64,000 bases of DNA from a virus, in IMG/VR virus record IMGVR_UViG_3300037245_003639. One strand, 5' to 3'. The first letter of the stretch is position 1, and each line of letters begins with the position of its first letter. The translations under genes were made by a program, and so were the position numbers. The notes under the pieces are model-generated. The model had not been told where the DNA came from. It saw nothing but the letters and a program-made list of their open reading frames with translations, and searched no databases. Below, one piece after another: positions 8,206 to 60,686 of the stretch.

Positions 8206-9297
8206 ATGAGATACTGGCTTTTGACATTGCTACTGGTCCCAGGTGCTTTCGCCCAAGAGCCACCTAATCCCCCGATTGAACAGGGCTCCGAGAACTACAT
8301 CCGCGTGGACTGTGCCAACTTCCCGCAGATAGTCAACAAGGATTCCGCCAACTACACCGGGTTTCTTATTGACGTTTGGGAAGCTGTGGCTTTACGGCAG
8401 GACTGGCAATTCATCTACCACGAAGCCCCCAGAACAACTGAACCGGGAGCCGATCACTACGACGCTCCCTTCAAGAGACTGGAAACAGGAGAAGCGGATA
8501 TCCTGCTTGCAGCTTGCACAAAAACCGCGGCGAGAGAAGAAAGGATTGACTTCTCTGATCAATACTATCGCTCTGGTTTACGCATCGTCACCAACAAACA
8601 GGAGGCCCCATGGTATCTTTTCCTGACGGGCTTCCTCTCACCGAGTATTATCAAAGCATTCGTTATTCTGACCTGTCTGCTTACCGTGGGCGGGTTCTTC
8701 ATGTGGATATTCGATCGCCGACATGCCGACAGCGAGGTCAAGACTTTTGAACTCGGATGCCAATTGGCCTTCGAGACTGGCTCCACCATTGGGCATGGTT
8801 TCCTGCACCCTAAAAGTCGCGGAGCCAGATGGACGGGCTATCTCATATTCCTTACGGGTTGCATCTGTTTCAGCAACCTTATCTCCGAGATGACTGCGGA
8901 GAAGACCCTGGACCGCATGGATGGGGCCATTACAGGCCCGTCAGACCTCGCTGGCAAGACTGTAGCGACCGTGGCAGGGACAACTGCCTCCGACACTTTG
9001 GATAAACTGGGAGCAATCGTCCCCCAATGTGCAAAACTTGGCGATGCATTGCTCAAACTACTCATCGGTGAGGCCGATGCCGTAGTCTACGACTGGCCAG
9101 CCCTGGCTTACTACCTGAATGAAACGTCCGCAGGAGAACGTTGTGAAGCGGTCGGGCCATTGTTTGACATTCAATACTATGGGGTAGCTTTCCCCGAGGG
9201 TTCTCCTCTCCGCGAACAGTTTAACGTTGGACTCAACCTTCTACGAGAATCCGGTGAATACGAACAAATTTACAAGAAATGGTTTCCCAAAAGCTAG
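8206..9297 (+). CDS. GluR0-like ligand-gated ion channel: periplasmic binding-protein lobes S1/S2 interrupted by M1-pore loop-M2
   Basis: Signal peptide MRYWLLTLLLVPGAFAQ. PBP type-3 lobe 1 (RIDFSDQYYRSGLRIV). TM1 IIKAFVILTCLLTVGGFFMWIF. Re-entrant segment ELGCQLAFETGSTIGHGF, resembling a K-channel pore helix plus TxGYG filter. TM2 YLIFLTGCICFSNLISEMTA. PBP lobe 2 (GKTVATVAGTTASDTL...AVVYDWPALAYY). Confidence 0.6.
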   Translation: MRYWLLTLLLVPGAFAQEPPNPPIEQGSENYIRVDCANFPQIVNKDSANYTGFLIDVWEAVALRQDWQFIYHEAPRTTEPGADHYDAPFKRLETGEADILLAACTKTAAREERIDFSDQYYRSGLRIVTNKQEAPWYLFLTGFLSPSIIKAFVILTCLLTVGGFFMWIFDRRHADSEVKTFELGCQLAFETGSTIGHGFLHPKSRGARWTGYLIFLTGCICFSNLISEMTAEKTLDRMDGAITGPSDLAGKTVATVAGTTASDTLDKLGAIVPQCAKLGDALLKLLIGEADAVVYDWPALAYYLNETSAGERCEAVGPLFDIQYYGVAFPEGSPLREQFNVGLNLLRESGEYEQIYKKWFPKS

Positions 9298-9388: not shown

Positions 9389-10366
9389 ATGCTCACACTT
9401 ATCGTCCTGGCGCAAGCCACGATTGTGAATTTCGTCGCAGCCGACGCAACCGACGCGATTCAGAAGGCTATCAACTCGGGGGCGTCCGAGATTATCATCC
9501 CTTACGTCGGCCAGGATTGGATTGTTCGCCCGCTCACGCTGGCGAGCAATCAGACGATCCGACTCGAACCGGGCGTGGCTGTGGTCGCCAAGAAAGGCCA
9601 TTTCCAAGGAAATAACGACTGTCTCATTCGAGGGAACCGCGTCACCAACGTAACCATCCAGGGCTATGGCGCCGTTCTGCGCATGCGCAAGGCCGACTAC
9701 CAGGACAGGAAGAAGTATGCCCCCGCAGAATGGCGGCACGGTATCTCGCTCCGGGGCTGCCGTGACATTAAGATTCTCGGCGTGCGAGTCGAGAGCACCG
9801 GCGGGGACGGCATCTACGTTGGTCCACAGTTGAAGACCTGGATACCTTGCAAGAATATCCTCATTCAGGACGTTGTCTGTGACGACAATCTTCGGCAGGG
9901 ATTGAGCATCACGTCGGTTCGCAACCTTCTGGTCGATAACTGCGTTTTCAGCAATACGTCCGGCGGCAGACCCGGGGCGGGGCTCGACATCGAGCCTAAT
10001 GTCGTGTGGGACCACGTCTGTAACATCGTGGTGCGCAACTCACAGAGCGTCGGTAATGAGGGGGCGGGTTGGTTTGTAAACCTATCTCGGTTGGGCAAGG
10101 CATCGTCCTATGTCGATATCCGGTTTGAAAATTGTTTTGTGCAGCGGTGTGGAGATGCCGGGTCGTTGCGGCTCAAATCAATCGATAGTGACAGCCCGCG
10201 TGGTATCGTAGAATTCATCGATTGTGTATTCGAGGATCCCCGGTATGCGTATTGGAAACAGTCGCCATTATTGATTCGGTTCGAGAACTGCAAATGGAAG
10301 ATCGGGCGCGATGTGCTGCATATTCAGCGATGGCAAGGGCAGTCACTCATGGAGCCGAAGGAGTAA
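9389..10366 (+). CDS. Secreted right-handed parallel beta-helix protein (pectate-lyase-fold; putative glycan depolymerase / tail-spike-like)
   Basis: In-frame ATG at 9389 with GGAG RBS. Signal-like MLTLIVLAQATIVNFVAADA. Beta-helix repeats (CLIRGNRVTNVTIQGYGAVL; ESTGGDGIYVGP; DDNLRQGLSITSVRNLLVDNCVFSN). GC-rich relative to surroundings. Confidence 0.6.
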   Translation: MLTLIVLAQATIVNFVAADATDAIQKAINSGASEIIIPYVGQDWIVRPLTLASNQTIRLEPGVAVVAKKGHFQGNNDCLIRGNRVTNVTIQGYGAVLRMRKADYQDRKKYAPAEWRHGISLRGCRDIKILGVRVESTGGDGIYVGPQLKTWIPCKNILIQDVVCDDNLRQGLSITSVRNLLVDNCVFSNTSGGRPGAGLDIEPNVVWDHVCNIVVRNSQSVGNEGAGWFVNLSRLGKASSYVDIRFENCFVQRCGDAGSLRLKSIDSDSPRGIVEFIDCVFEDPRYAYWKQSPLLIRFENCKWKIGRDVLHIQRWQGQSLMEPKE

Positions 10367-10368
10367 TG

Positions 10369-11244
10369 AACATGTCAGCAATAAATGAATTCGACATTGC
10401 CTTCATCATTGATACAACTGCCAGCATGGGCCGGTTCATTCATGACGCCCGCCGTGAGATGCAAAAAACCCTAAAGGCCCTGGCTGATGTTCAGGACGTA
10501 AGTATGCGGGTCGGGATTGTGGAATACCGAGACCACCCGCCCGAAGATCGTAGTTTCGTAACCACATTTCATCAATTCTCAGACGACTTGAATGCGACCC
10601 AGAGAATTATCGAACGCCTCGATCCATCCGGTGGAGGAGATGCCCCCGAAGCCGTTCTGGATGGAATCGTAGCCGCCTGCAAAAAACTCGAATGGAGAGA
10701 ACATGCTCGTCGCATTGCTGTTCTGATCGGAGATGCCCCTCCCCATGGCTACGCTGGTCCGTCTGATAGATGGTCGAGTGGTTGCCCTTGCAAAGAGACC
10801 CTGGAGACCGTTACAGCATTAGCAGAAGAAACCTGCATTCGCCTGTTCTCTATTCCGCTATATGTAGACCCGTATCTGACAAAAGCATTCAAACAACTGG
10901 CTTTACTCACAGGTGGAGGAATGTTCCCCGCCCAAAACGGTGGAGCCATGCAAGAAATCCGCAAAATTGTGGAAGAAGAGTTCGGAAAACTGCCTTTCGA
11001 TATAAAGGTCCATGATGCATGGCATGAAGTCTCAGGTGAAATCAGCGCCACCCAATTAGCTGAAAGGTTCAGTGTTAGCCTCGATGATGTATATGAATCG
11101 TTAGGACGTTTGGGCAGTCGTAATCTGCTGGACGTTCAGGCTCATCACACTCCCAAAGGCATTGAGAGATTTTTGACGCCGCAGGAGATTGAAGGTGCCC
11201 GAGAAGCCTTCGAAAAGGGCACGACCGGGGTCGTCGAAAGCTGA
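10369..11244 (+). CDS. von Willebrand factor A (vWA) domain protein with C-terminal helical domain
   Basis: MIDAS-type start DIAFIIDTTASMG and VGIVEYRDH, DAPEAV, IAVLIGDAPPHG. RBS AAGGAG. Confidence 0.65.
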   Translation, partial: NMSAINEFDIAFIIDTTASMGRFIHDARREMQKTLKALADVQDVSMRVGIVEYRDHPPEDRSFVTTFHQFSDDLNATQRIIERLDPSGGGDAPEAVLDGIVAACKKLEWREHARRIAVLIGDAPPHGYAGPSDRWSSGCPCKETLETVTALAEETCIRLFSIPLYVDPYLTKAFKQLALLTGGGMFPAQNGGAMQEIRKIVEEEFGKLPFDIKVHDAWHEVSGEISATQLAERFSVSLDDVYESLGRLGSRNLLDVQAHHTPKGIERFLTPQEIEGAREAFEKGTTGVVES

Positions 11245-11354: not shown

Positions 11355-11380
11355 ACACGTATGACATGGAGGCTTGGCGG

Positions 11381-12577
11381 ATGATCATAAGGTCTTTACT
11401 CGATACAGATCTTTATAAACTGACAATGCAACAGGCCATCCTGTTCGGACGGTTTGCTGGCGTTCATTTCCAGTCAGTGCCCGTCCGTTACAAGTTTATC
11501 AACCGCAATCGCACGCCTTTCCCCGCTGGCTTTGACAGGATGCTACAAGCAGAGATTGAAAGCCTTGCTCGTCTCCAATTGGTCGAAAGGGAAAGGGAGT
11601 TCCTGACCAGTCGGCGTTTTCTCAAACCCGGCTATATCGACTTCTTTAGCGGTTATCGCTACAACCCTGAGGAAGTCACAGTTACGCAAGACTCAGATGG
11701 ACAACTGCATGTCACGGTTGAAGGCCCGTGGTACCGAACAGTCATGTGGGAAGTTCCACTGCTTGCTATAATCAGCGAACTATACTTCCAGTCTCAAAAC
11801 ATAACCGTTTCACTGCCATCCGTTCGTGATTCTGCGGCAGCAAAAGCAATGCGATTGGTACAGGCGGGTTGTTTCTTTGCAGACTTTGGGACTCGACGAC
11901 GATATTCGAGGGAAGTCCATGAACACGTTGTAGAAGGTCTCAAGTTCTGTCCTAATCCGCACAGCCATTTCTCTTATCGTCGAGGAAATCTTACCGGAGC
12001 CAGCAACGTTTGGCTGGCTATGCGTAACAATATCACTCCCATCGGCACTCACGCCCACGAGTGGTTTCAGGCAATTGCGGCGTTATTTGGCTACCGCCAA
12101 GCTAACCGTTTTGCTCTGGAAGCGTGGGCCGAAGAATACGGCGGTGATCTAGGAATCGCCTTGAGCGATACTTTCACCACTGATGTGTTCTTCCACGACT
12201 TTCGAGCAGATATGGCCAAGCTCTGGGATGGAGTCCGACATGACAGCGGAGATCCCCTCGTTTTTGCCCAGAAGACCATAGATCATTACCAGAGTTTGCA
12301 CATTGATCCGCTTTCGAAGACAATCGTCTTTAGTGACGGCCTCAACGTGGACAAAGCCATTGAATTGAATGAGTGGTGCAAGGGTAAAATAAAATGTGCA
12401 TTTGGCATTGGCACCCACTTTAGTAATGACGTAGGCGCCACACCGCTGAACATCGTTATGAAGATGACCCGTTGCAATGGAATGCCGGCTGTTAAGCTCT
12501 CTGACGTAGACGGGAAGAATACTGGCGATGCCGACGCCATCGAGTCGTGCAAATTTCAACTAGGACTGAACGCATGA
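11381..12577 (+). CDS. pncB: Nicotinate phosphoribosyltransferase family (NAPRTase); alternatively a Namat-like enzyme
   Basis: Hallmark N-terminus IRSLLDTDLYKLTMQQA. GGAGG RBS 8 nt upstream of ATG 11381 (the track ORF starts at 11366, in frame). 400-aa length typical of PncB. Confidence 0.85.
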   Translation: MIIRSLLDTDLYKLTMQQAILFGRFAGVHFQSVPVRYKFINRNRTPFPAGFDRMLQAEIESLARLQLVEREREFLTSRRFLKPGYIDFFSGYRYNPEEVTVTQDSDGQLHVTVEGPWYRTVMWEVPLLAIISELYFQSQNITVSLPSVRDSAAAKAMRLVQAGCFFADFGTRRRYSREVHEHVVEGLKFCPNPHSHFSYRRGNLTGASNVWLAMRNNITPIGTHAHEWFQAIAALFGYRQANRFALEAWAEEYGGDLGIALSDTFTTDVFFHDFRADMAKLWDGVRHDSGDPLVFAQKTIDHYQSLHIDPLSKTIVFSDGLNVDKAIELNEWCKGKIKCAFGIGTHFSNDVGATPLNIVMKMTRCNGMPAVKLSDVDGKNTGDADAIESCKFQLGLNA

Positions 12578-15117: not shown

Positions 15118-15690
15118 ATGGACGCATTGAATATTGGGATATTGGTGGTTGGCATTTGTGCAGGGATTGGCGCTCTGATACTCAAACTCAAGTCACGTAA
15201 ACCTGACCAAACGCTACCCATCAGCCCCCAAGCCACCGCTCCTCCGCAGGCGGCCACCAGAACAAGAAAAGATGTTCCCATCCGTCACCGACGCCGAGCT
15301 AATTCAACAGGTAAGATTGCGCCCGCCGGTTATTACTGGAACGAGACGGATGAACTCTTCGACTTGGATGGCTGGTTGATTGAAGGAATAATACTTCTTG
15401 AAATGCTCGACAGTATGAGCGTGGTTCCACTCGACGGAATCGCAGCTTCCAATGAACAATATGCTCAGGAAATCGATGCTACTCCTGATATTCCCGCAGC
15501 AGAGGTTGAACATGTAACAGAGAGTATCGCAAGCCCTCCTCCCGCGCCTGTGCATCACGAACCTGTTACTCCTGAGCCCGAGCGAAGTAGCTGGGGCGGA
15601 GGCGGAAGCGGAGGCGGAAGCGGAAGCGGAAGCGGAAGCTACGATTCAGGTGGAAGCGACTCTGGCGATTGCGGTGGAGGAGATGATTAA
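15118..15690 (+). CDS. Membrane protein with Gly/Ser-rich C-terminal tail
   Basis: N-terminal TM LNIGILVVGICAGIGALIL. C-terminal GGGSGGGSGSGSGSYDSGGSDSGDCGGGDD encoded by a (GGAAGC/GGAGGC)n repeat. Confidence 0.4.
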   Translation: MDALNIGILVVGICAGIGALILKLKSRKPDQTLPISPQATAPPQAATRTRKDVPIRHRRRANSTGKIAPAGYYWNETDELFDLDGWLIEGIILLEMLDSMSVVPLDGIAASNEQYAQEIDATPDIPAAEVEHVTESIASPPPAPVHHEPVTPEPERSSWGGGGSGGGSGSGSGSYDSGGSDSGDCGGGDD

Positions 15691-42642: not shown

Positions 42643-44394
42643 TTACCATGACGACGGAACGTCAGTTTCTTCAATAACATCAGGATAATCAGATTCCATA
42701 AAATCAACATCAAACTGATGACCATTATACGTTAATACCCAAGTCCTCTGATCCTCTCCTTTTGCATCGGGATGTGACTTGCGTATTAGCTCAATCGGTC
42801 TGCGCCATGTCTTGTAAATATACTTCACGACGTATTCAGCATATGACAAGTCTAGGTTAACAGGGTCAGAACGCGAATGCTCTAAACGGAGCAAACCTGT
42901 TTCATCTACTCGTCTCACTACTATCTCGGGAACTCCATAATTATTGCGTGACCATGCAAAACCACGGATAATATCTTTCAGTTCCTTCGATTGGACGATT
43001 ACAGTTTTATTTTCGATATACTGTTCGTCTATTGCATGAGAACCCAAGTCGTCTTTCTCGGATTCTTTGAATCTCTCTTTGATTTTCTCTTGGATTCCAT
43101 AGTCATCTTTATACTTATCAGTGCTCCCATACATAAAAAGATGCAACTCATGGGCCAAGTCTTCGGTAAGGTAGTTCCTCATGAAAGAGACATCATCCTC
43201 TTCCATCATAACTTCACGAATCTTTTGGGCTCCATCGATGGTGACTGGAATTTTGCGATCCCATTCGTCCTCTCGATACCCTTGTTCGTAATACTCATCC
43301 CACCGCTTCTTGATATCCCGAAATATCCTGAATCCCATGTAATACGGATTCAAACGTGTAATTGAAGAAAAAGAATTGGGATTTTCCCTAACCAACCGAC
43401 TCCACACTTTCACTTTCTTACCTGTTGGACGGCCCATTTGATCAGTTTCTTCAACCTCTTCTTTCAGATGAGCTTTGGCTCCGGGCTGAACAACCTTTTC
43501 GTGCTGTGTGAGAAAGTCCAAATGCTCTTCGTCTGTCATGGGATATTTTATGTCCGTTACTCCGTAATCATTATCGTTCCCAAGAGCATACTGATCCATC
43601 AACTCTTTGTGCCAGTAAGAGGCCCAACCTTCATTCATAATTTTAGTGCGAAACATAGGATAGAAGTAATAAGCTTCTCTCCTTACCATTTCAAAGATCT
43701 TTTGTTGCCAAGGTTCCATGCTCGCATATTCTGACATAAACCATAGCAAATCACGTTCAGGTCTCGGGGGGATATGAATTCCCTCAATAACCTTTTGAAT
43801 GAGAGGGGCTTTATCGTTGATATGAACTATATCTTCATGAAGTTTTACTTCACGCTCTTTATAGACAGCTCGACGAGCAGCATATCTTTTTCGGCGCCTG
43901 CCCTTGAATATATCAATGTGGTGCTCTAAAGCAAGGGCGACATCCAGCCACTCATCTATAACATCGTCCCCATAGTCGTCTCTAAACTGTTCAATGATTA
44001 CAGCGTGGCGCTTAGCCACATTTACCATCTGCGTTTCATCAATTTTCTGAAACATAGAGTTGTTCTTAAAAAAATCGCTATGTGCATAACAGTGGGCTGC
44101 AATAAAAAGATTAGTGGTGTTGGTATTGTTCTTATCCAAAAACGCAAGAGAGGGGTCGTTATCCAGAATCAACTCATAGATTCTGGAGAAGCCCATCTCA
44201 CCTTGAGCCTTTTGGTACTGATATATCCGACCAAAACTCCAATGAGAATAACGAGTCGGAAGACCATAACTGGCTGTCTGCCAAATTACCGGCGCAGGAA
44301 CCTCAAAGAAGTGGACATCAAAAGGATCCAGCTTAGCTGCCAATGCCAGCCGTTCAATTTCAGCGAATCTTTCCTTCAATAGTTCAGTAGACAC
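42643..44394 (-). CDS. spoVR: SpoVR/YcgB family protein
   Basis: GLPTRYSHWSFGRIY...FIAAHCYAHSDFFKNN matches the SpoVR consensus. Confidence 0.85.
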   Translation of the reverse strand: MSTELLKERFAEIERLALAAKLDPFDVHFFEVPAPVIWQTASYGLPTRYSHWSFGRIYQYQKAQGEMGFSRIYELILDNDPSLAFLDKNNTNTTNLFIAAHCYAHSDFFKNNSMFQKIDETQMVNVAKRHAVIIEQFRDDYGDDVIDEWLDVALALEHHIDIFKGRRRKRYAARRAVYKEREVKLHEDIVHINDKAPLIQKVIEGIHIPPRPERDLLWFMSEYASMEPWQQKIFEMVRREAYYFYPMFRTKIMNEGWASYWHKELMDQYALGNDNDYGVTDIKYPMTDEEHLDFLTQHEKVVQPGAKAHLKEEVEETDQMGRPTGKKVKVWSRLVRENPNSFSSITRLNPYYMGFRIFRDIKKRWDEYYEQGYREDEWDRKIPVTIDGAQKIREVMMEEDDVSFMRNYLTEDLAHELHLFMYGSTDKYKDDYGIQEKIKERFKESEKDDLGSHAIDEQYIENKTVIVQSKELKDIIRGFAWSRNNYGVPEIVVRRVDETGLLRLEHSRSDPVNLDLSYAEYVVKYIYKTWRRPIELIRKSHPDAKGEDQRTWVLTYNGHQFDVDFMESDYPDVIEETDVPSSW

Positions 44395-44403
44395 AGCAAA
44401 TCC

Positions 44404-45576
44404 TTATGAGTGTTCCAAGCTCCGACGATGCGAATTCTGTAAGAAAGTCTGCAAAGCTTTCAGAATGTCGGAAGTCTCTTCAATCACAGAAACAATTACT
44501 CCGTCCTCTACCTCTGCCAACTCTCTGAAATGAGTAAGCAAACGGCTATCAGACTCACGCCAAGAATCAATGTTGATTTCTGCGTAAGCAAAAAGATTAC
44601 CCCCCAAAGTCATGATGTTTTTAACTAACTTCATGCACTTGGGTTCATCTCCAAAAGTATCTCCGTCAGATGAATGAAAACAGTAGATATTCCAACGATG
44701 ACCGGGATAGTTATGCCTGATTATGTCATGACACATCTCGTAAGCAGCCGAGACCCGAGTACCACCACTATCAGATATGGAGAAGAAATCTTTTTCAGTC
44801 AATTCACGGGCGTAGAAATCATGGGCAATGAATTTAACCTCCACCCTTTCGTATTTACGCTTCAGAAACTGAACGACCCAAAAGTAAAAAGCCTTCACTG
44901 CATAAATCTTGTCTTCCCACATGGACGCCGAGCGGTCCATCATCAGAAAGATTACAGCATTACTGTGTTTCTCTTCCGAAATATCCCAAGTACGATAGAC
45001 CATATCGTCTTTGGTATAGGGAATCTTCCCCGTTTTCCGAAGTGCATTCTTACGACGAATATGAGACAGAATGGTGCGCTTCTTGTCTATACAGGATTCT
45101 ACGCCAGATCCTTTACGACGATCTGTATACTCAAGAACATTGCTGACGATTTCGTTCTTCTTGGTATCGTCTAAATCGGGAAGCTCTAGCTCCGAGATCA
45201 TCATATCAGTCAGCTCATCGACTGTATATTCGGCCTCAAACAGCTCACCACCGTCTGCATCACCAGCCCGAGGACCAGGTTTTTCCCCTGGCTGAGGACG
45301 ATAGAGAACCTCATCATCATCTAGCTCATCATAGTTATCACGACCAACTATGTCGGTTCGGTCCTTATTGTGAATAAACCGAAACTGATCGAGGTATTTG
45401 AGACGAATCTTGATTTTCTTATTACCCTCAGATGTAATGATATCTTGCTGAGAGATAATGTCTTTCAATTGCTTTCGAACTGCTTCATCGACACGCTTAT
45501 TATGTTTTTCAGCATCCCTACTTCCCCTGCGCAAAATATCGTAGGGGAAATCTTGTTCTATAATTGTAGAACCCAT
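44404..45576 (-). CDS. yeaH: YeaH/YhbH family protein (DUF444, vWA-like)
   Basis: VIFLMMDRSASMWEDK...VEVKFIAHD...FFSISDSGGTRVSAAYEMC...WNIYCFHSSDGD is collinear with E. coli YeaH (MFCLMDVSGSM...VEVVYIRHH...GGTIVSSAL...WNIYAAQASDGD). Confidence 0.85.
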   Translation of the reverse strand: MGSTIIEQDFPYDILRRGSRDAEKHNKRVDEAVRKQLKDIISQQDIITSEGNKKIKIRLKYLDQFRFIHNKDRTDIVGRDNYDELDDDEVLYRPQPGEKPGPRAGDADGGELFEAEYTVDELTDMMISELELPDLDDTKKNEIVSNVLEYTDRRKGSGVESCIDKKRTILSHIRRKNALRKTGKIPYTKDDMVYRTWDISEEKHSNAVIFLMMDRSASMWEDKIYAVKAFYFWVVQFLKRKYERVEVKFIAHDFYARELTEKDFFSISDSGGTRVSAAYEMCHDIIRHNYPGHRWNIYCFHSSDGDTFGDEPKCMKLVKNIMTLGGNLFAYAEINIDSWRESDSRLLTHFRELAEVEDGVIVSVIEETSDILKALQTFLQNSHRRSLEHS

Positions 45577-45584
45577 AATTCGCC

Positions 45585-47648
45585 TTACTTATCGAACAGG
45601 TGAGCAGTAGCATACTTCAGCACTTCATTCGCAGAAGCAGCAGTATAACCTTGTTGATCAACCATTCGATCAATTACGTCGTTTAAACGACGCAGACCTT
45701 CTGGATCGGGATTGCGAGTAGAGACAGTCATGCGAATTGTTCCTTGCCTCTCTTCGAACAGTTGTTTCTGGATGGCTTCACGCAATTGGGCGTGTTGTGT
45801 ATAGTCTACCTTTTTGCCTTTGTGAGCAGCGATTCCGAAGAAGTGTAGAATCTCATGACGGAAATCATCGACTCCACTCTTGCTTACTTCTAGGTGGCCC
45901 TCGATGCCTTCCATGAGCTTCTCGTCAAGTTCGATTTCTTTATCGGTGATTGGATCTCGTTGTTTCTCATCTGAGAGAGACATCTCAATCTGCGTCAGAT
46001 AGTTATCACAGAGATTCTTGGCTTCATCTTCAAACGATAGGAAGAAAGCTTTCTGAATGTCGTTTCTTAGCAAATCATTCCACTCATTCCGACTTGCGTC
46101 AATGAATTGTTCGAAACGGGCCTTCTCTTCTTTGCTAAAGGAATCCCTGTGCTGAACGCCACTTAGGAGTTGACGCAGCACATCCAAAGCCGTGATATAA
46201 TCTCTACCATCTTCAGCCGCATTAGCAATGGAAGCGTTGATCTGGTCGATCACGAATCGAGGAGAGATACCAAACATACCTTCCCTGGGAGCATCCTTAT
46301 ACATATCATGGACACATGAAGGCTTATGGCCTTTAACGTGCTGCCCGTCATACAACTTCATCTTTGTCACGAGCGTCAGATCACTGTCCTTCGGAGGCTC
46401 TAAACGAGTTAAAGTAGCGAACATGGCTGATGCTTCTAAAGTATGCGGAGCGATATGAATCGCTTTTGTTTCGCCTGCCTTGACTGCCTTGACTGCCTTG
46501 ACTGCTTTGACTGACCGTTTGCCTGCCTTGACCGACTGTTTGCCTGCCTTGACTGACCGTTTGCCCACCTGAACCGACATCCCGTGGGCATCGTCTCCGC
46601 TTTTGATGCTCAAATCGCTGTCACGCAGAAGCTTCTCGTAAATCTTGACTTCGTTTTTTATGCCGAGGTTGTATGGCACCCGAATAATTACCATACGGTC
46701 ATGATAGGCCTCGTACTTTCGCTCGGCCATGAAGTTTTTGAACTCTTCCTCGTTGGTATGCATAATAATGAAAGTGTCGATTGAGATAAGACCAAATCTT
46801 GGAGCTTTGATCATCTTCTCTTGTGTAGCCGTGAGAAGAACTCTCAAGAAACGTTCGTCAGCCTTGAGTCCTTCAATGAATTCCATGATACCCCGGTTAG
46901 CGACTTCAAGCTCACCATTCAAATTGTAAGCCCGAGGGTCTCCCTCGTTGCCCACTTCCTGAATACGGGCGTAGTCAATACCACCGACTAACTCGCTTTG
47001 ATCCTGACTTTTTGGATCTTGTGGGAGCCATGTGCCAATTCCAATCCGCCGAGATTCGGAAATAAAGACTTGCTCAATGGGATATTCTAGGAACTTGCCC
47101 TTGAATTCATGCTCAAGTCGCCACGCCGTATGGGGGCTCAGTTGGCCTTCGATAGAGATGCCGTATCGCTTCTTGAAATCTGCTCGCAAATCATCTGGAA
47201 TGAGCAGAAACGGACTTTCATGCATCTCGCTGTCCTTAAGAGCGAAAAGAGCACCTTCCGTCTCTTTGGTAAATGCCTCCAGCCCTCGTTTGATACGGAT
47301 CACGAGATCGCTTTTACCAGAGGAAGGAGGCCCGTACAACAGCAACATACGACGAGCCGTCTCGGTCTTTCTGGCAGCAGCATGAACATAAGACATGATT
47401 TGGTCAATAGATGACTCAATACCGTACAATGAGTCCTCAAAAAACTTGTACTGCGTCCGAGCACGACCAAAATAATCGTGTGTGTCTGTCCCCTTAGCCG
47501 TAATCATGCTTTCAATACGCTGATGAGCCAAATGCCCGATACCAGGATACTTGTCAGTCTCAAACAAACGCAGAAAATCTTTGAAGGAGCCTTCCCAGCG
47601 CGAGATTGAGCGCTGCTCAGCAGCTTCAAGTTTCTCAATGAAGTTCAT
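45585..47648 (-). CDS. prkA: PrkA/YeaG AAA-type serine protein kinase
   Basis: LLLYGPPSSGKSDLV P-loop and PrkA C-terminal domain. Contains an in-frame K/V/A-rich tandem repeat insert. Confidence 0.9.
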   Translation of the reverse strand: MNFIEKLEAAEQRSISRWEGSFKDFLRLFETDKYPGIGHLAHQRIESMITAKGTDTHDYFGRARTQYKFFEDSLYGIESSIDQIMSYVHAAARKTETARRMLLLYGPPSSGKSDLVIRIKRGLEAFTKETEGALFALKDSEMHESPFLLIPDDLRADFKKRYGISIEGQLSPHTAWRLEHEFKGKFLEYPIEQVFISESRRIGIGTWLPQDPKSQDQSELVGGIDYARIQEVGNEGDPRAYNLNGELEVANRGIMEFIEGLKADERFLRVLLTATQEKMIKAPRFGLISIDTFIIMHTNEEEFKNFMAERKYEAYHDRMVIIRVPYNLGIKNEVKIYEKLLRDSDLSIKSGDDAHGMSVQVGKRSVKAGKQSVKAGKRSVKAVKAVKAVKAGETKAIHIAPHTLEASAMFATLTRLEPPKDSDLTLVTKMKLYDGQHVKGHKPSCVHDMYKDAPREGMFGISPRFVIDQINASIANAAEDGRDYITALDVLRQLLSGVQHRDSFSKEEKARFEQFIDASRNEWNDLLRNDIQKAFFLSFEDEAKNLCDNYLTQIEMSLSDEKQRDPITDKEIELDEKLMEGIEGHLEVSKSGVDDFRHEILHFFGIAAHKGKKVDYTQHAQLREAIQKQLFEERQGTIRMTVSTRNPDPEGLRRLNDVIDRMVDQQGYTAASANEVLKYATAHLFDK
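46474..46566. repeat. In-frame tandem repeat (9-nt gccttgact x4 plus 21-nt units) inside prkA
   Basis: Encodes SVKAGKQSVKAGKRSVKAVKAVKAVKAG between the PrkA domains. Confidence 0.7.
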
Positions 47649-47657
47649 AATAACTCC

Positions 47658-48509
47658 TCAGAACCCAAGGATTTCACTCAAAACCGGTTTAATAGCTTCA
47701 TTCTGCTCTTCAATAGTCATCTCAGCATTGTTAAGTATGAAACAACGCTCTCTGTTCCAATCAAAATCGTCGAGAGCAGACTCACTCGAATGTACATCAT
47801 TCAAACCAAAAGGGCTTCGTGTCAAGCGAATTACAAAACCTTTTGACTCTGTTAAGACAGTTTCAACTTCGTCAGGAAAACGGTTATCAGTTATGACTGA
47901 AAATGGCTTGCCTATTTTCTTGATACGGCGGATAGTGGCTTTTGCCCAGACATTACCGAACGTCTGTCGGACTAGATCAGTTCCAAAAACCTGCATGATA
48001 TCACGACCCGTCATTGGCCCATCCATGTAACAGGGGTAGGATCGCTGTAATTTATTGGGCAGTTCCATTCCTTTAGCGACAGCAACCTGGGAAAGACGCA
48101 TATTGTAAAACTCATCCATCAACTCGTCCTGGGTCTTGCCTTGCGCTACCAACTTCCGGGCTAAGTCATCAGCAAACTTCCATGCAATGAATCGAGGAAC
48201 ATCATCCCATTCATATTGAGTGGGAGCATTTTTCTCTTCCTCGGTCCCGTAGCAAGCCTCATAGGGCAATCCCAGAACATCTATACAAAAGTCTTTCAGG
48301 GCATCTGCGAAAGAGCACTCGAAAGTCAAAAGTTCGTCGGCTTTCTCTTGATGTTGCTCTAATGATATATACCCAGCATCTCTGCCCTGAGTTAAGTTCG
48401 ACAACTGAAAGGAGGCTTGTTGCTCAGCATAATATTGCTTGATGAACTGGCCTAATGTGTTTTTACCAGCTTGTTTACGACCAGACATGGCAATGATTAT
48501 TTGATCCAT
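47658..48509 (-). CDS. Deoxynucleoside monophosphate kinase (T4 gp1-like P-loop kinase)
   Basis: IIIAMSGRKQAGKNT parallels T4 dNMP kinase LIFLSGVKRSGKDT. Confidence 0.55.
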   Translation of the reverse strand: MDQIIIAMSGRKQAGKNTLGQFIKQYYAEQQASFQLSNLTQGRDAGYISLEQHQEKADELLTFECSFADALKDFCIDVLGLPYEACYGTEEEKNAPTQYEWDDVPRFIAWKFADDLARKLVAQGKTQDELMDEFYNMRLSQVAVAKGMELPNKLQRSYPCYMDGPMTGRDIMQVFGTDLVRQTFGNVWAKATIRRIKKIGKPFSVITDNRFPDEVETVLTESKGFVIRLTRSPFGLNDVHSSESALDDFDWNRERCFILNNAEMTIEEQNEAIKPVLSEILGF

Positions 48510-50500: not shown

Positions 50501-50715
50501 TCCATCAGTGTGTCAATGGCTTCACTTACTAAGCTGTGCAATTCGGTTCTAACAAGATTCAAACTGCCCTTGTAAAAACGCAAGGGAACTTCAATTATTT
50601 GCTCTCCGACTTGTACACTTGCTGAAGTTGATTTATCGGCCTGAGGCACTGCCACCAAAGCAATACCGACTATTGGACTACGCTCTCCATCTAAAGCTTT
50701 AACTTCTATACTCAT
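50497..50715 (-). CDS. Hypothetical protein
   Basis: 72-aa ORF; ATGA-type coupling. Confidence 0.35.
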   Translation of the reverse strand: MSIEVKALDGERSPIVGIALVAVPQADKSTSASVQVGEQIIEVPLRFYKGSLNLVRTELHSLVSEAIDTLME

Positions 50716-51245
50716 TGTGTAACTCCCATGTTGATAAACCTCGGTTTATCGTCACTCAGAACGACATCTTTACCGCCGCCTGAGATTTCGTCGAGAATGC
50801 GATCATAATCGTCATTGGGCGTCAACCATTGAGCCCGCAGAACTCCAGGATCTTCATTGACCCATTCTGTTAGCAACTGTAGTTCTACAGCATAGTCCGC
50901 TTCAACATAAGCGAAATCGATGCTACTCCCGCTAAAGAACTCAGCGCGATGGTCATAGACATTGACAACCATCAAGTCATGTAGAAACAAAGTAGATGAT
51001 GCCCGAACCTCCAGATTGCCCTTAAAAAGCAACCCAGTCGCCAAGGACTGAATTACCAAAGTGGTTTCGTCGTGGACTTTGTGCTTAAAAATACGCCATC
51101 CGTGGATCTCTTCAAAGAGCAGACGTTGACCAGAAGGTTTGCGAAGTATCTTGAAACCATGAACCCCTTTCTGTCGGGCGTTCACGTTTCTATGCTTCCT
51201 TTGTATATACTCGACGATTTCGTCAAGAGTAGTACATCGCTTCAT
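50712..51245 (-). CDS. Hypothetical protein
   Basis: 177-aa ORF; TATAAT 5 nt upstream of the ATG. Confidence 0.4.
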   Translation of the reverse strand: MKRCTTLDEIVEYIQRKHRNVNARQKGVHGFKILRKPSGQRLLFEEIHGWRIFKHKVHDETTLVIQSLATGLLFKGNLEVRASSTLFLHDLMVVNVYDHRAEFFSGSSIDFAYVEADYAVELQLLTEWVNEDPGVLRAQWLTPNDDYDRILDEISGGGKDVVLSDDKPRFINMGVTQ

Positions 51246-56459: not shown

Positions 56460-57248
56460 TTACACTTTATTGTGAACAGGTCGGCATTCATATAACCCGT
56501 CATCAGTGGAAATCCGCTCAAAGTCTTGGAAAAGGAACGGATACTTCTCTTTGGCAACATCATAGACCTCACAGAAGACCTTCCGAATTTCGACTTCGGC
56601 CACCGGCGAAGTTCTCATCTGAATAACCCAACGGAGCGCCCTGAGATTAAACGTGGTAGCGATACCCGTAGCTACGCCGATTGGAGCAATGCGACGAAAA
56701 GCAGAAGTAAGTTGCTTCTTCTGATGGAAGTCTTTCATCTCATCAATGCTATAAATGCGAGCAAGTTCTTTCTGGCCCCATTCGCATTTCTCAATGACTT
56801 CCGCAAAGACTTCCATCGCTTCAGGATTGTCAGCAATGATATCTGGAATCCAAAACCGCAAGTTATCCAAACGAACGTAACGGAGGCTCACCTGGGAAAA
56901 CGCCATTCCGGCCCGATGCCTAACTAACTCATGTGTGAAAACCCGAGAAACGTCCTCAAAGGCAAAGGAAATCGACGGATGTTCCATCACAGAGCCATGG
57001 GCGCTTTCCAGGATATTGGCATGATACTTTTCACTGTCTGTCCGAACTTTGCTGATGTTTGGATTCAGCCCCACATCGAAGCTTCGATAACAGTTGCGAC
57101 CAGCCAGTTCAACAAGCTGCTCGCCGTCATCTCCGTCAATATGATCGAGAGCTTTTAGCCCACCCACATGTTTAAGCCAGGCAGCCACTCCATCTTCGTC
57201 CAATTGAGTATAAGCGACGAGGAAAACTTTCGGTTCAACTTTGATCAT
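56460..57248 (-). CDS. thyX: Flavin-dependent thymidylate synthase
   Basis: ThyX signature ELVRHRAGMAFSQVSLRYV (RHR...SQ.S.RYV). Confidence 0.85.
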   Translation of the reverse strand: MIKVEPKVFLVAYTQLDEDGVAAWLKHVGGLKALDHIDGDDGEQLVELAGRNCYRSFDVGLNPNISKVRTDSEKYHANILESAHGSVMEHPSISFAFEDVSRVFTHELVRHRAGMAFSQVSLRYVRLDNLRFWIPDIIADNPEAMEVFAEVIEKCEWGQKELARIYSIDEMKDFHQKKQLTSAFRRIAPIGVATGIATTFNLRALRWVIQMRTSPVAEVEIRKVFCEVYDVAKEKYPFLFQDFERISTDDGLYECRPVHNKV

Positions 57249-57714
57249 TTTTCACCTCAAATTCATCTTTGGCTGCGTCATAGCCGTCTCCATAACCTTC
57301 TTCACGACAGGTATCAGAATCTGCGGCTCCATCATTGAAACCTTCGTCATACCTGGCGTCAGAATCTTCTAGACCAATATTATAGCCTTCAGCGTAACCA
57401 TCGCCTTTGCCCTCATCATAACCATCAGCATGACCATCGGCTTGGCCCTCATCATAGCCATCGTCTTTGCCATCAGCACAACCATCAGCATAGCCCTCGG
57501 CTTTGCCCTCGGCTTTACCTGCATCGAAAGCGGCAGCGCCCCATTCTTTTTCATCAAGCTCTTTGATAGGGTCCAGCGTCAAAGGGCTGCCCTCCCCATG
57601 TTTATGCACCAGAAAAGCATAAAGCTGAGCCAGTTCGGTTAAAGTCATGTTTTTGACAGGAAGTTTTTCAAGACGGGCTCCATACAGCGGTTTTTCACCA
57701 GTCTTGGCAATCAT
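57235..57714 (-). CDS. Acidic (D/E-G-Y) tandem-repeat protein
   Basis: AEGYADGCADGKDDGYDEGQADGHADGYDEGKGDGYAEGYNIG; DNA-level repeats at about 57290-57540. Confidence 0.4.
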   Translation of the reverse strand: MIAKTGEKPLYGARLEKLPVKNMTLTELAQLYAFLVHKHGEGSPLTLDPIKELDEKEWGAAAFDAGKAEGKAEGYADGCADGKDDGYDEGQADGHADGYDEGKGDGYAEGYNIGLEDSDARYDEGFNDGAADSDTCREEGYGDGYDAAKDEFEVKNDQS

Positions 57715-58106
57715 TCCAAACCTCCGAATTCAACATCCTCATGAATAAACTGGATAGAACGAGCATTTGGAATAGCTGTGCGAATCTCTTCTTCGACTAT
57801 TTCAGTATCAACATCCTCTGCATTCTGATGCTTGATTGTTACTACTAAATCTCTGTTCCTAAATTCACTGCGGCTATAAAACTCAATACCCATATTAACC
57901 AGCATTGGAAAATAGACGCCATCGGGTTCGAGACTGTCAATTTGCTGAATAAGACTGCGAAGCTTAGCTTTCTCAACATGACCATATTTCTCTTCATTTA
58001 GACAGATGAAGACAATAGAATCACGGAGGTCTTCTCGTTTGGCAGCTAAGACTTTGAGATGACGGCTATCTATGACAGGGGTTGCTCGCTTCTTCTCAAG
58101 AGACAT
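57711..58106 (-). CDS. Hypothetical protein
   Basis: 131-aa ORF. Confidence 0.4.
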   Translation of the reverse strand: MSLEKKRATPVIDSRHLKVLAAKREDLRDSIVFICLNEEKYGHVEKAKLRSLIQQIDSLEPDGVYFPMLVNMGIEFYSRSEFRNRDLVVTIKHQNAEDVDTEIVEEEIRTAIPNARSIQFIHEDVEFGGLE

Positions 58107-59054
58107 CTACGTCCAACCTTTCCCTTCCAAATATTCCGCTATGTTCAAGTGCCATCTATACGGCGATATCTCTTCATTATACTCAATCAGAGTCACACTA
58201 TGATTCTCAGCCATTAATAACGATTTATTCCAGTCATCTTTATCAACCATATCAGATCCTATCTTCCCATAGATAACCTTTTTGATGCCCGCCTGAATGA
58301 TATCTTTAATACATCCCGAGCATGGCTTGCCAGTTACATATAGGATGCAACCTTTCGGACGACGGGGACTATTCAGCACTGCGTTTCTTTCTGCATGAAT
58401 TACGAACGCATATTTCTCGGGTCGAGTGGTGGGATAATCCTTAGTGCCTCCGCGAGGAAATCCATTATATCCCTGTCCCATCGGAATATTATCTTCATCA
58501 ACAATAACTGCTCCATGTTTAGTAGATGGATCAGGTGAACGGCTAAGGACCGCAGTAGCTTCCAACATAAAGTATTCGGTCCAACTGGGTCGCCGAGACC
58601 ACTTTTTAGACGTGGGTGTACCACCTAAAAGACTCAAAACCTCATCACGAACCTTTTGGACATCCAATCCCAGGTTCATCAATATCTGTGCTGCAATTCC
58701 ATCTCCTTCCCGAAGTAGCCCGAGCAATATATGCTCAGTGCCCAAGTAGTTATTGTGCAACTCCCGGGCTTCCTCCACCGCATATTCCAATACTCGTTTG
58801 GAGCGAGGCGTCTGCGGGAGCTTACCCATAGTCACCATCTCGGGGCCACTCTTGACCAACTTCTCGACTTCAAGCCGCACTTTTCGCAAGTCAACACCCA
58901 GTTTCTTCAACACGTTGGCGGCGACGCCGGAGCCCTCTTTCACCAGCCCTAGCAAAATATGCTCGGTGCCGATATATTCATGGTTGAAGCGTTGCGCTTC
59001 TTGATTAGCCAGAGCCATGATCTTGCGGCTCCTATCCGTCCATCGTTCAAACAT
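58107..59054 (-). CDS. Fusion protein: tandem Clp N-terminal (Clp_N) repeats plus dCMP/cytidine deaminase domain
   Basis: Two Clp_N repeats (FNHEYIGTEHILLGLVKEGSGVAANVL; HNNYLGTEHILLGLLREGDGIAAQIL), then the deaminase zinc motifs HAERNAV...PCSGC. Confidence 0.7.
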   Translation of the reverse strand: MFERWTDRSRKIMALANQEAQRFNHEYIGTEHILLGLVKEGSGVAANVLKKLGVDLRKVRLEVEKLVKSGPEMVTMGKLPQTPRSKRVLEYAVEEARELHNNYLGTEHILLGLLREGDGIAAQILMNLGLDVQKVRDEVLSLLGGTPTSKKWSRRPSWTEYFMLEATAVLSRSPDPSTKHGAVIVDEDNIPMGQGYNGFPRGGTKDYPTTRPEKYAFVIHAERNAVLNSPRRPKGCILYVTGKPCSGCIKDIIQAGIKKVIYGKIGSDMVDKDDWNKSLLMAENHSVTLIEYNEEISPYRWHLNIAEYLEGKGWT

Positions 59055-59084
59055 CTTTTCCTCCTAGAAACCATTTATTGTGCA

Positions 59085-60326
59085 TCACGGCGCCGATCGC
59101 GTAATCACGCGGCAGTCGTTGCGACGGACCCCGTTTGTGATTAAACAGTCGCCCGGCTTTCGCACCAGAATATCCACTTCAGTCAATTCGCCATTAGTCG
59201 CGTCGAATGCCCGTAGTGGCCGCCGCCCTTTGTCTCGAATCGACTGGTCACGAGACAGCAGCCCAAGATAACGCGAGCGGAGATCAATACGCGAATACCG
59301 GACGGCCCCGCCGTCGAGATGTACCAAGGCGTTCGCGGCACCCTTCGTCGCCCACTCGTACTGTGCCATGCCGGCTTCGAGCGAATTCTGCTCGATGATG
59401 CTGTCCTCTAGTATCCCCGTTATCCGTATCGAGGATTCGAGCGATTGAAGTAGGTTGTTCTGGAGCCGCAGCCCACGCACCCGTCCGACGATCTGTATCG
59501 CGTTTACCGTGCCGTGCGTTTCCGCTTCCAACCCCGAGATTACAATCTGTTCGCAAGGTCGGCCAGTCGCCGGACCACCAATCTGGATACCAGCTAGTCC
59601 GCCCCCACCCAGTTGCGTGCGATCCAACATCTTGTTCGACATACTTCCGCCGGTGATATAAAACCAACCAGTGCCGTCTTGAATGATGATGTTGACCTCG
59701 GTATCAGTACGCGAGTAAACGCCCCAAGTGCAACCAAGAAACTGCTGACAAAGATTCGAGCCACCCGCGACCTCACCAAACGGACTCGTGACACCGAAAG
59801 TATTGGTGCGACTCGTAATGAAGTTACCGCCTCCTGGCGAATTGTTCATGAACAAGCAGTGCGTATAAAGATTGACCTCGCTGCCAAACGACACGATCGT
59901 CGCGAGCTTCACGGGAGCTTCCCACCGAATCCCATCAAACTGATGACGCCCGGCCGACGCGCCGCTCTTGTCCCGCGCCAACACCAGACCAACGCGCGGC
60001 ATATTGTTTCGGGATGTCACCTTGAGTTGATTCAAAGCGCACCATTGCGCTCCGGTCATGTCGATCAGCAATGGCCAGTCAGGACCAACCACGAAAGCAA
60101 TCTCGGTGGCACGACCTTCACCGATGATCCGCACGCCGGTGCGGCCGCGCAGATTGAGTGGCTCGTGCTGCCAGTATACGCGCGGCTCCAACTGAATCGT
60201 TCCGCCGCGAGACGACAGCGCGTCAATTGCATCTTGCAAGTTTTCTCGTGAATTTTGAGCTAGCGAGATACTCGACAGAACCAGAGTGGCCACCAGCCAT
60301 CGAATTAAAATAAATGCTTTAGTCAT
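59085..60326 (-). CDS. Secreted right-handed beta-helix protein (pectate-lyase fold; putative polysaccharide depolymerase)
   Basis: Signal peptide MTKAFILIRWLVATLVLSSISLAQ and beta-helix repeats. GC about 58 %, well above the flanking genes. Confidence 0.55.
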   Translation of the reverse strand: MTKAFILIRWLVATLVLSSISLAQNSRENLQDAIDALSSRGGTIQLEPRVYWQHEPLNLRGRTGVRIIGEGRATEIAFVVGPDWPLLIDMTGAQWCALNQLKVTSRNNMPRVGLVLARDKSGASAGRHQFDGIRWEAPVKLATIVSFGSEVNLYTHCLFMNNSPGGGNFITSRTNTFGVTSPFGEVAGGSNLCQQFLGCTWGVYSRTDTEVNIIIQDGTGWFYITGGSMSNKMLDRTQLGGGGLAGIQIGGPATGRPCEQIVISGLEAETHGTVNAIQIVGRVRGLRLQNNLLQSLESSIRITGILEDSIIEQNSLEAGMAQYEWATKGAANALVHLDGGAVRYSRIDLRSRYLGLLSRDQSIRDKGRRPLRAFDATNGELTEVDILVRKPGDCLITNGVRRNDCRVITRSAP

Positions 60327-60335: not shown

Positions 60336-60686
60336 CTAGGCGAATCCCATCCCTTTCTTATAGAGAACCCAATGTCCTTCGCCTTGTCGCTGATAGTGTC
60401 TTTCACTCATAGGAGCAACAAGGTGGATTCTCCAATCATGGTCTGGATCTTTGACTGCCATTTCCTCTGCCGTAGCAGTTGTGATGATACCTTCTTCATG
60501 CTGGGGGTCTTCTTGATAGACAGTTTCACCATCTCTCGAAAGGGATGCATCCCCGAAGCCCACTGCAATGATACTCTCACCAACAGGAAGAACAGCGTGT
60601 TGATAACCACAAATCAAACAACCGCCATAACCTCCTTCAATAGCCGGAAGTTTCTCCCAGTTCGGTTTAATTTTCTTTTTAGCCAT
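60336..60686 (-). CDS. Hypothetical protein
   Basis: 116-aa ORF. Confidence 0.35.
   Translation of the reverse strand: MAKKKIKPNWEKLPAIEGGYGGCLICGYQHAVLPVGESIIAVGFGDASLSRDGETVYQEDPQHEEGIITTATAEEMAVKDPDHDWRIHLVAPMSERHYQRQGEGHWVLYKKGMGFA

Follow-up and report, generated by a model that had tools for sequence, protein, structure and literature searches.

A 64,000-nucleotide stretch of viral DNA (IMG/VR record IMGVR_UViG_3300037245_003639, called the window below) encodes on its minus strand a protein of 315 amino acids (aa), in which a ClpC-type N-terminal domain (NTD) is fused to a zinc-dependent dCMP deaminase. The identity of the two halves is regarded as almost certain; each is a textbook domain, and their combination is unreported. 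The gene and its parts are laid out as follows.

58107..59054, minus strand: complete coding sequence of the ClpC-NTD/dCMP deaminase fusion, one open reading frame (ORF) of 315 aa plus stop codon.

59060..59065, minus strand: Shine-Dalgarno sequence AGGAGG, 5 nt 5' of the ATG, from the reverse complement ...TAGGAGGAAAAGATGTTTGAACGATGG

58620..59054, minus strand: ClpC-type NTD, aa 1-145, with repeat 1 at aa 1-70 and repeat 2 at aa 78-145; eight helices.

58590..58619, minus strand: flexible linker, aa 146-155 (~11 aa), GTPTSKKWSR…, with a low predicted local distance difference test score (pLDDT).

58110..58589, minus strand: zinc-dependent dCMP deaminase (DCTD-type) domain, aa 156-315, assigned from hidden Markov models (HMMs), fold and orthology.

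58461..58472, minus strand: allosteric-site motif G195-Y-N-G198, codons GGA TAT AAT GGA.

58389..58397, minus strand: H220-A-E222, catalytic zinc ligand and proton-shuttle glutamate, codons CAT GCA GAA.

58311..58325, minus strand: zinc-binding PCxxC motif, P244-C-S-G-C248, codons CCA TGC TCG GGA TGT.

The reading frame opens with an ATG and contains zero internal stops, and the peptide strings by which the initial annotation had recognised the two domains (HEYIGTEHILLGLVKEG, NNYLGTEHILLGLLREG, HAERNAV and PCSGC) were each found in its translation. A stop codon or frameshift between the halves, which that annotation had named as the observation that would speak against a fusion, was looked for and was absent. 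The exact sequence (P0001 in a public protein collection) was found on a 403 kb JGI contig and on a 16.5 kb Logan contig, and an uninterrupted fusion ORF is present on L001, L002, L003, L088, L089 and L090, which are independent contigs from different samples or sequencing projects. As the uninterrupted frame recurs on independent contigs, a frameshift or an assembly chimera can be excluded. No second deaminase or Clp_N gene was detected inside the window by tblastn.

The initial proposal of a Clp_N repeat pair fused to a dCMP deaminase was borne out by HMMs, by matches to solved structures, and by the predicted fold and a fold search. In the domain scan that had been suggested, both families scored well above their cut-offs: Clp_N (PF02861) matched the N-terminal half in two stretches with 135.2 bits against a cut-off of 20.7 (E 8.5e-40), and dCMP_cyt_deam_1 (PF00383) matched aa 157-263 with 71.8 bits against a cut-off of 25 (E 4.9e-20). 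The division was repeated with the PHROGs collection, in which phrog_35667 (a Clp_N-only family of unassigned function) spans aa 1-146 and phrog_174 (dCMP deaminase) spans aa 148-306. The structure prediction that had also been proposed, an AlphaFold model searched with Foldseek, yielded N-terminal repeats that are Clp_N-like.

The N-terminal half resembles the NTD of ClpC closely. With phmmer against the PDB it matched the NTD of Mycobacterium tuberculosis ClpC1 with an E value of 1e-47 and the phosphoarginine (pArg)-bound NTD of Bacillus subtilis ClpC (5hbn) with 1e-44, and in a Foldseek search of the PDB aa 1-145 matched the M. tuberculosis ClpC1 NTD 6pbs with a TM score of 0.95, a root mean square deviation of 1.1-1.3 Å and 54% identity. 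It shares with the ClpC NTDs of B. subtilis, Staphylococcus aureus and M. tuberculosis (5hbn, 6pbs, 3wdc) the same eight-helix double-repeat fold at 52-55% identity to the solved domains, the start MFERxTDR, an end at the domain boundary, and the glutamates and threonines of the pArg1 and pArg2 pockets together with K85. Residues T6, R8, T30, E31, T82, K86, T106 and E107 of the window protein are all the same as in host ClpC; in this numbering T6, R8, E31, K86 and E107 correspond to T7, R9, E32, K85 and E106 of S. aureus and B. subtilis ClpC. In ClpC, adaptors, pArg tags and unfolded segments dock on the NTD; T7 and E106 form pArg1, the pocket most relevant for activation, E32 is part of pArg2, R9 makes a salt bridge to the neighbouring M-domain, and K85 anchors the NTD to AAA1 and also touches cyclic-peptide antibiotics and the adaptor MdfA (PMC12583610). 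The pArg-pocket residues and K86 are thus present in the window protein, and pArg binding is putative.

No AAA+ module or M-domain follows the NTD in the window protein, which ends at aa 315 with aa 156-315 occupied by the deaminase, and NCBIfam models for ClpA, ClpB, ClpC and ClpK matched the NTD only and far under their cut-offs. Because it has no AAA+ module the fusion protein is not a Clp ATPase. Unlike ClpC, it could not unfold a substrate or deliver it to ClpP alone, it has a metabolic enzyme as its partner, and it is encoded by a phage.

The C-terminal half was examined for the hallmarks of DCTD, namely HxE, PCxxC and the allosteric G(Y/W)N(A/G) motif (PMC12088426). All three are present, so that every testable DCTD criterion points the same way. 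H220, E222, C245, C248, G195 and N197 are invariant in an alignment of 35 sequences, and P244, Y196 and G198 are conserved in at least 90% of it. With phmmer the deaminase half matched human DCTD (2w4l) in the PDB with an E value of 1e-21, and with Foldseek it matched the same structure with a TM score of 0.77-0.86 and 38% identity, and the PBCV-1 bi-DCD (7fh4) with a TM score of 0.84 over the deaminase half. The motifs, the fold and a gene link to thymidylate synthesis are common to the human (2w4l), T4 (Cd), S-TIM5 and PBCV-1 dCMP deaminases; these known enzymes lack the 155-aa ClpC-NTD and linker of the window protein and its clade-specific C-terminal helix ending YLxxKGW. The DCTDs studied are without exception ring-shaped hexamers under the control of dCTP and dTTP (PMC12088426), and by this family rule the fusion protein is presumed to be a hexamer also.

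The two domains appear to be joined loosely. An AlphaFold2 monomer model built from the 35-sequence alignment had a mean pLDDT of 92.6 and a predicted template modelling score (pTM) of only 0.63, and residues 146-148 had a pLDDT below 50. These scores suggest two rigid domains on a flexible tether, without confident mutual packing. Linker length among nine fusion proteins varied from 11 to 56 aa and included low-complexity repeats.

The fusion is rare and is confined to one small clade of uncultured giant phages of Planctomycetota. Among the top matches in a collection of 5.8 billion proteins it was found in nine clusters at 90% identity, which collapse to one 50% cluster in a library of 1.84 billion representatives. 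No other Clp_N-deaminase fusion was present among the best 150 matches of that library, in which long multi-stretch matches were tandem double deaminases. A homolog search with the deaminase only missed known fusion proteins and was not used for counting. None of the cultured-phage records covered both halves, none of the structures in BFVD matched both domains, and a scan of IMG/VR yielded no fusion and only one contig (L086), with two stand-alone Clp_N ORFs. No literature was found that names Clp_N together with a deaminase or that treats the function of phage Clp_N proteins; the statement in the initial annotation that no characterised deaminase carries this module agrees with the cultured-phage, BFVD and literature searches. 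Fusions of ClpN repeats to vWA, in conflict systems, have a single mention (PMC7159879).

Stand-alone Clp_N proteins of phages (PHROG 35667, gp251 of Mycobacterium phage Myrna and the L086 ORFs) are also ClpC-NTD-like, but have short uncharacterised tails and no enzyme. Myrna gp251 is 235 aa in length and 50% identical over aa 1-159. L086 (IMG/VR UViG_3300025326_000023, 73.6 kb, GC-rich) carries adjacent Clp_N ORFs of 186 and 221 aa at 9974-11243 with glycosyltransferase-like flanks, and the 221-aa ORF (10578-11243) shares 71% identity with the window NTD and continues into a proline-rich tail and a small C-terminal domain. If this contig is truly viral, it may represent a second, independent capture of a ClpC NTD by a phage. 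The stand-alone ORFs indicate a module that turns up repeatedly in phages, joined to different partners.

A tree of the deaminase domain, made by neighbour joining without bootstrap, placed all fusions in one clade together with the unfused proteins P0121 and P0122, of which P0122 has a different N-terminal extension and no Clp_N gene nearby. This suggests one gain of the NTD and at least one loss or replacement. Gene fission (the 'Rosetta stone' case) was considered and rejected, there being no separate Clp_N gene near the unfused orthologs in L005, L087 and L092. The phage NTDs are 52-81% identical to the host consensus and each is closer to that consensus than to the other phage NTDs, as would follow from independent divergence of a host-like ancestor in each lineage. 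The host NTDs retrieved are ~96% identical on average, a uniformity that is somewhat overstated as the set was found by query-derived peptide patterns.

The source of the NTD was investigated by scanning prokaryotes at one genome per species. This returned 80 loci, nearly all from Planctomycetota and mostly from Phycisphaerae, with two from unclassified uncultured bacteria. These loci are 80-84% identical to aa 1-147 of the fusion, from Met1. The match forms the N-terminus of a complete ORF of 836-1197 aa in 51 of the 63 loci with a locatable start motif (all but three of 836-866 aa), and the full-length ORF of L012 has both AAA+ modules and is a typical ClpC. Homology to ClpC starts at Met1 (MFERFTDR…) and stops at the natural boundary of the domain (…LLGAG). 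At the nucleotide level the NTD part is 74-76% identical to host clpC from nt 1. GC content at third codon positions (GC3) is 0.59 in the NTD part versus 0.39 in the deaminase part, an asymmetry repeated in L001 and L002, and the GC content of host clpC is 61-66%. Multi-Clp_N bacterial paralogs were considered as the donor and rejected, as they reach at most 77% identity versus 80-84% for genuine ClpC. These comparisons point to the 5' end of a clpC gene from a planctomycete as the most likely donor, which would make Planctomycetota the host phylum.

Detached ClpC NTDs are widespread in this phylum. Planctomycete tandem multi-Clp_N proteins of 500 and 367 aa lie side by side at 10001-12603 of L004, and Clp_N fusion partners in Planctomycetota include the PF05635 four-helix bundle, UVR, HIT, phosphoribosyltransferase and semialdehyde dehydrogenase. 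The many multi-Clp_N proteins and Clp_N fusions indicate that the NTD is a portable module in Planctomycetota, where detached ClpC-NTD modules have undergone a phylum-wide expansion. In the metagenome-assembled host genome L012 a gene for a DSP-type protein phosphatase (1450-2061) lies two genes upstream of clpC.

Selection on the two domains was compared at the DNA level. Synonymous sites were saturated in all 15 pairs (pS 0.63-1.0), so that dN/dS ratios were unusable and only nonsynonymous divergence (dN) was compared between domains. In subgroup A, to which this phage belongs (DNA of P0001, P0003 and P0017), dN was 0.19-0.23 for the NTD and 0.20-0.30 for the deaminase. In subgroup B (DNA of P0028, P0059 and P0053, including pairs with P0003) the corresponding values were 0.28-0.58 and 0.04-0.12. 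P0005 and P0012 of subgroup A and P0044 of subgroup B were compared at the amino-acid level only. The retention of the subgroup A NTD despite saturated synonymous sites indicates purifying selection. Repeat 1 is better conserved throughout, with a mean identity of 66% versus 44% for repeat 2; T6, D7, R8, R10 and K86 are among the residues that do not vary across the nine fusions, and E107 and E31 are each retained in eight of the nine.

The setting of the fusion gene bears on the enzyme half. The neighbouring genes of the nucleotide module are listed below.

60679..61077, minus strand: MazG/PRA-PH-type nucleotide pyrophosphohydrolase, upstream in the nucleotide module (Pfam PRA-PH E 1.7e-18, phrog_671).

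57711..58106, minus strand: 131-aa ORF that abuts the deaminase stop codon; conserved, no Pfam, PHROG or PADLOC match.

56460..57248, minus strand: ThyX, flavin-dependent thymidylate synthase, predicted to use dUMP from the deaminase (Pfam Thy1 E 3.9e-39).

47658..48509, minus strand: deoxynucleoside monophosphate (dNMP) kinase (DNMK), downstream in the nucleotide module (Pfam DNMK E 7.3e-10).

The same gene order was kept in all related loci: ThiF-like E1, MazG/PRA-PH, deaminase, an ORF of ~130 aa, ThyX, then after an interval topoisomerase IA, and after another dNMP kinase, PrkA, DUF444 and SpoVR. Synteny of ThyX, the MazG-like gene, DNMK and ThiF extends over six related loci, some of which have an unfused orthologous deaminase. 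The position of ThyX relative to the deaminase is conserved in all of them. It had been described as lying 1 kb upstream; ThyX is at lower coordinates on the minus strand and is consequently downstream in transcription, two small ORFs away. The MazG-like gene closely precedes the deaminase, next to it or with one ORF between, in L001, L087, L088, L089 and L090, and DNMK is syntenic in L001, L002, L005 and L087. An ORF of 127-131 aa directly follows the deaminase in L001, L002, L005 and L087, and one of 129-131 aa lies one extra ORF later in L088-L090; it is retained with or without Clp_N on the deaminase.

Two unfused orthologs occupy the same position as the fusion gene: P0129 (L087) is 166 aa in length and has no extension, and P0123 (L005) is 235 aa in length with an unrelated N-terminal extension of 68 aa. 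Unfused deaminases at this position in relatives suggest that the C-terminal half is the regular dCMP deaminase of the phage and that Clp_N is an accessory addition. The suggestion that the protein serves dTMP synthesis was supported for the enzyme half by the conserved synteny with ThyX, including that in relatives without Clp_N. On these grounds the C-terminal 160 aa are predicted to be an allosterically regulated zinc dCMP deaminase supplying dUMP to the neighbouring ThyX. In L002, the contig of P0003 and the closest fusion relative, a second, plain dCMP_cyt_deam_1 protein of 178 aa is encoded ~6.5 kb downstream (7672-8208). The window has no counterpart; the ORF in that slot (50712-51245) has no family match.

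The window has the appearance of a segment of a very large phage genome. Its ORFs are mainly orphans in long co-directional arrays, and the genes it carries include those for a collagen-like tail fibre, a tail-spike-like protein, a clamp loader, a phage metallopeptidase, the dNMP kinase and a module for NAD salvage. The contigs of relatives are 105, 252 and 402 kb in length and that of the exact protein 403 kb. Around the deaminase, a 413-aa ORF (59085-60326, minus strand; GC 0.56, GC3 0.62) has an N-terminal hydrophobic stretch resembling a signal peptide and no family match. Its place between the MazG-like gene and the deaminase is peculiar to the window and L003; it is absent there in L001, L087 and L088-L090, and looks like a recent insertion. 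A 159-aa protein (57235-57714, minus strand) has acidic G(Y/H)ADG and DEG repeats in its C-terminal half and a weak match to Yae1_N (E 6e-5); its ORF overlaps the start of ThyX by 14 nt, and its slot holds an ORF of 104-133 aa in some relatives and is empty in others. Four genes upstream of the deaminase, a ThiF/E1-like protein (Pfam E 1.4e-22) lies beside a weak match to a JAB/MPN peptidase (61627-62286 and 62337-62873, minus strand). The E1-like protein also matches the E1 part of the PADLOC models for the E1-E2 protein (Cap2) of CBASS, and the ThiF gene is conserved in L001, L005, L087, L088 and L092; the pair is a possible ubiquitin-like conjugation or counter-defence module of the phage.

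Elsewhere in the window, an operon on the minus strand (42643-47648) encodes PrkA (45585-47648), DUF444/YeaH (44404-45576) and SpoVR/YcgB (42643-44394), with Pfam E values of 1e-78 to 1e-99. PrkA is also present in the big-phage contigs L001, L002, L005 and L087, with the full set of three visible in L005; such a kinase module associated with stress and sporulation is unusual in a phage. On the plus strand, genes for an NAD synthetase (phrog_36784, E 1.6e-104), a ribose-phosphate pyrophosphokinase-like protein and a nicotinamide phosphoribosyltransferase-like protein form a module (2229-4010, 4298-5317 and 11366-12577) that suggests phage-encoded NAD+ salvage or regeneration. ARAGORN called a tRNA-Ile of 89 nt with anticodon AAT (15358-15446, plus strand) within an ORF (15118-15690). 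Its length and anticodon are unusual; a false positive is possible, as is a phage tRNA that is atypical or contains an intron.

As to the function of the fusion, we tentatively propose, as a serious possibility that falls short of being probable, that a thymidylate-pathway deaminase, presumed to be hexameric, displays tethered ClpC-NTDs as a decoy for the ligands of ClpC. The deaminase half would continue to supply dUMP to ThyX, and hence dTTP, while the hexamer would display six flexibly tethered copies of the NTD. These copies could act as a multivalent decoy or sponge for adaptors, for pArg-marked or unfolded proteins, or for molecules that target the NTD, and would blunt or redirect the activity of host ClpC-ClpP during infection. 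The deaminase would be an abundant, early-expressed, oligomeric scaffold and not the target of regulation. Competition for ClpC ligands, or recruitment to the Clp machinery, is the favoured candidate among the four roles listed in the initial annotation. A more far-reaching version, in which a megaphage clade took the receptor domain of host ClpC and its hexameric, multivalent decoy disables the surveillance of phage proteins by ClpC-ClpP, is considered somewhat unlikely. Were it true, it would be the first viral anti-protease strategy that mimics the receptor domain of the protease itself, and the divergence of the subgroup B NTD would be an arms race and not decay.

The analogy on which the decoy proposal draws is mainly that with mycobacterial ClpC2, an NTD homolog that acts as a sponge, for cyclomarin, and as a pArg-sensitive repressor and sensor of pArg (PMC10030653, PMC13345244). 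In both cases an NTD homolog is detached from the ATPase and fused to another domain, the action proposed for the fusion is, as with ClpC2, to sequester NTD ligands, and the fusion family strictly keeps mainly one pArg pocket, as ClpC2 does. Subgroup B in particular resembles ClpC2, which retains one of two pockets (PMC13345244). The two differ in that ClpC2 is cellular, with an N-terminal dimerising and DNA-binding domain and a C-terminal NTD ~40% identical to that of ClpC1, whereas the fusion has an enzyme as its partner, a viral owner and an N-terminal NTD ~81% identical to the host consensus. As it has no DNA-binding domain the fusion is not a member of the ClpC2 family; ClpC2 is nevertheless, by analogy, the nearest functional counterpart of the phage NTD. 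SPO1 Gp53 is likewise a phage protein aimed at the ClpC system; it targets ClpC and aids phage growth (PMC6873191), and the outcome proposed for both is an altered ClpCP activity that favours the phage. Gp53 is adaptor-like and contacts ClpC, whereas the fusion copies the receptor domain of ClpC and would act on ClpC ligands. The ClpC of Chlamydia, a relative within the Planctomycetes-Verrucomicrobia-Chlamydiae (PVC) group, recognises pArg substrates (PMC10128030).

Several observations weigh against a decoy. The NTD of subgroup B (P0028, P0044, P0053 and P0059) evolves at a pace 5-7 times that of the enzyme, in P0053 its repeat 2 is near neutral (dN about 0.9-1.0), and the pArg2 side is altered in subgroup B (G29E, T30P, T82S and changes at P83 and R84); the subgroup B NTD is undergoing relaxed or diversifying evolution. 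P0121 and P0122, nested in the fusion clade, are without the NTD, which indicates that the module is dispensable. Neither mcsA nor mcsB was found beside clpC in the two host loci checked, where the neighbours were a DSP-type phosphatase, a glycosyltransferase and others. Moreover, rings of DCTD are understood to have D3 and not C6 symmetry, so that the NTDs would project from both faces and would not form a literal copy of the NTD ring of ClpC. Relaxed evolution in part of the family tempers any functional reading of the accessory domain.

Three other explanations take the NTD as something other than a decoy. It may be a sensor or regulatory domain that binds pArg or a stress signal and alters the oligomer or activity of the deaminase, coupling dTTP synthesis to host proteostasis. 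The precedents are that pArg and CymA-like ligands change the oligomerisation of ClpC2, itself an NTD homolog fused to another domain (PMC13345244), and that the activity of DCTD depends on the stability of the hexamer (PMC12088426); pArg1 residues are, in addition, conserved in eight of the nine fusions. A linker of 11-56 aa that is of low complexity and predicted to be disordered, with no confident packing between the domains, is nonetheless hard to fit with conserved allostery. The close deaminases P0121, P0122, P0123 and P0129 lack any NTD and look fully functional, and the canonical dCTP/dTTP allosteric motif is intact, so that regulation is already provided; a sensor is therefore judged unlikely. 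A scaffolding role, in which the NTD docks the deaminase to ClpC itself by the M-domain or AAA1 surfaces that it touches in the resting state, to an adaptor or to a phage complex for dNTP synthesis, for localisation, chaperoning or timed turnover, has a still lower probability. R8 and K86 are invariant, and their counterparts R9 and K85 anchor the NTD of ClpC to the neighbouring M-domain and AAA1 (PMC12583610), but T6, R8 and K86 serve as well to form the pArg1 pocket and to cap helices, which leaves their invariance ambiguous. The unrelated N-terminal extensions of 50-68 aa in P0122 and P0123 suggest that the N-terminus is a general docking position, and other viral dCMP deaminases of 280-340 aa also carry extra regions. 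Binding of ClpC in trans by a free NTD is, however, unsupported, and in the loci examined no candidate phage partner tracked the presence or absence of the NTD. Just as improbable as scaffolding is a fortuitous capture, that is, a piece of clpC fused by illegitimate recombination, tolerated and slowly decaying, with little or no function. It would account for the fast evolution of the subgroup B NTD relative to the deaminase, the degenerate repeat 2 of P0053, the loss or replacement of the module in P0121 and P0122, and the contrast between host NTDs that are ~96% alike and phage copies 52-81% identical to the host consensus. It accords poorly with the persistence of the frame, the fold-determining residues and the pArg1 and K86 residues in nine lineages despite saturated synonymous sites, with a dN in the subgroup A NTD that is not above that of the enzyme, and with a junction exactly at the domain boundary. 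The independent stand-alone NTDs of phages also argue that the module is useful to them.

The remaining explanation concerns the enzyme, which might be a deaminase that edits nucleic acids or depletes nucleotides (APOBEC/TadA-like or AvcD-like), guided by a protein-binding domain. Matches to MafB19-deam were weak and at domain level, those to models of anti-phage dCTP deaminases were also weak (NF041025, 58.6 bits; PDLC02373, 75.7 bits), and some viral DCTDs use dCTP or 5-methyl-dCTP (PMC12088426). As an editing deaminase of tRNA or other nucleic acids, the protein was rejected on a score of only 22.2 bits for the TadA model NF008113 against a cut-off of 150, on the GYNG motif and on the best fold match, which is human DCTD; no APOBEC-type Pfam match was found in the fusion protein. 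The DNA/RNA-editing role raised in the initial annotation is disfavoured on the same evidence. An anti-phage dCTP deaminase was likewise rejected, since the score for NF041025 lies far below its cut-off of 400 and covers deaminase motifs only, and the N-terminal kinase-like domain of the defensive enzymes is absent. So was a defence system, since PADLOC yielded only a domain-level deaminase match (PDLC02373) over a partial stretch. As the protein is in addition the syntenic ortholog of plain dCMP deaminases beside ThyX, an editing or depleting activity is considered highly improbable.

If the NTD is a decoy or docking module, the fusion would be a clean natural case of viral capture of the receptor domain from a host AAA+ protease, and would represent a new phage route to regulated proteolysis beside adaptor-like effectors such as SPO1 Gp53. 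If it is a tolerated passenger, it would still be a dated example of the capture of a host domain by a phage, followed by relaxed evolution. The protein is small and soluble-looking and has two independently folding domains, which makes binding, competition and enzyme assays straightforward. If the proposed function is correct, the fusion would also provide a handle on the biology of ClpC in Planctomycetota, where conservation of the ClpC NTD is extreme and Clp_N modules have been duplicated and fused to many other domains.

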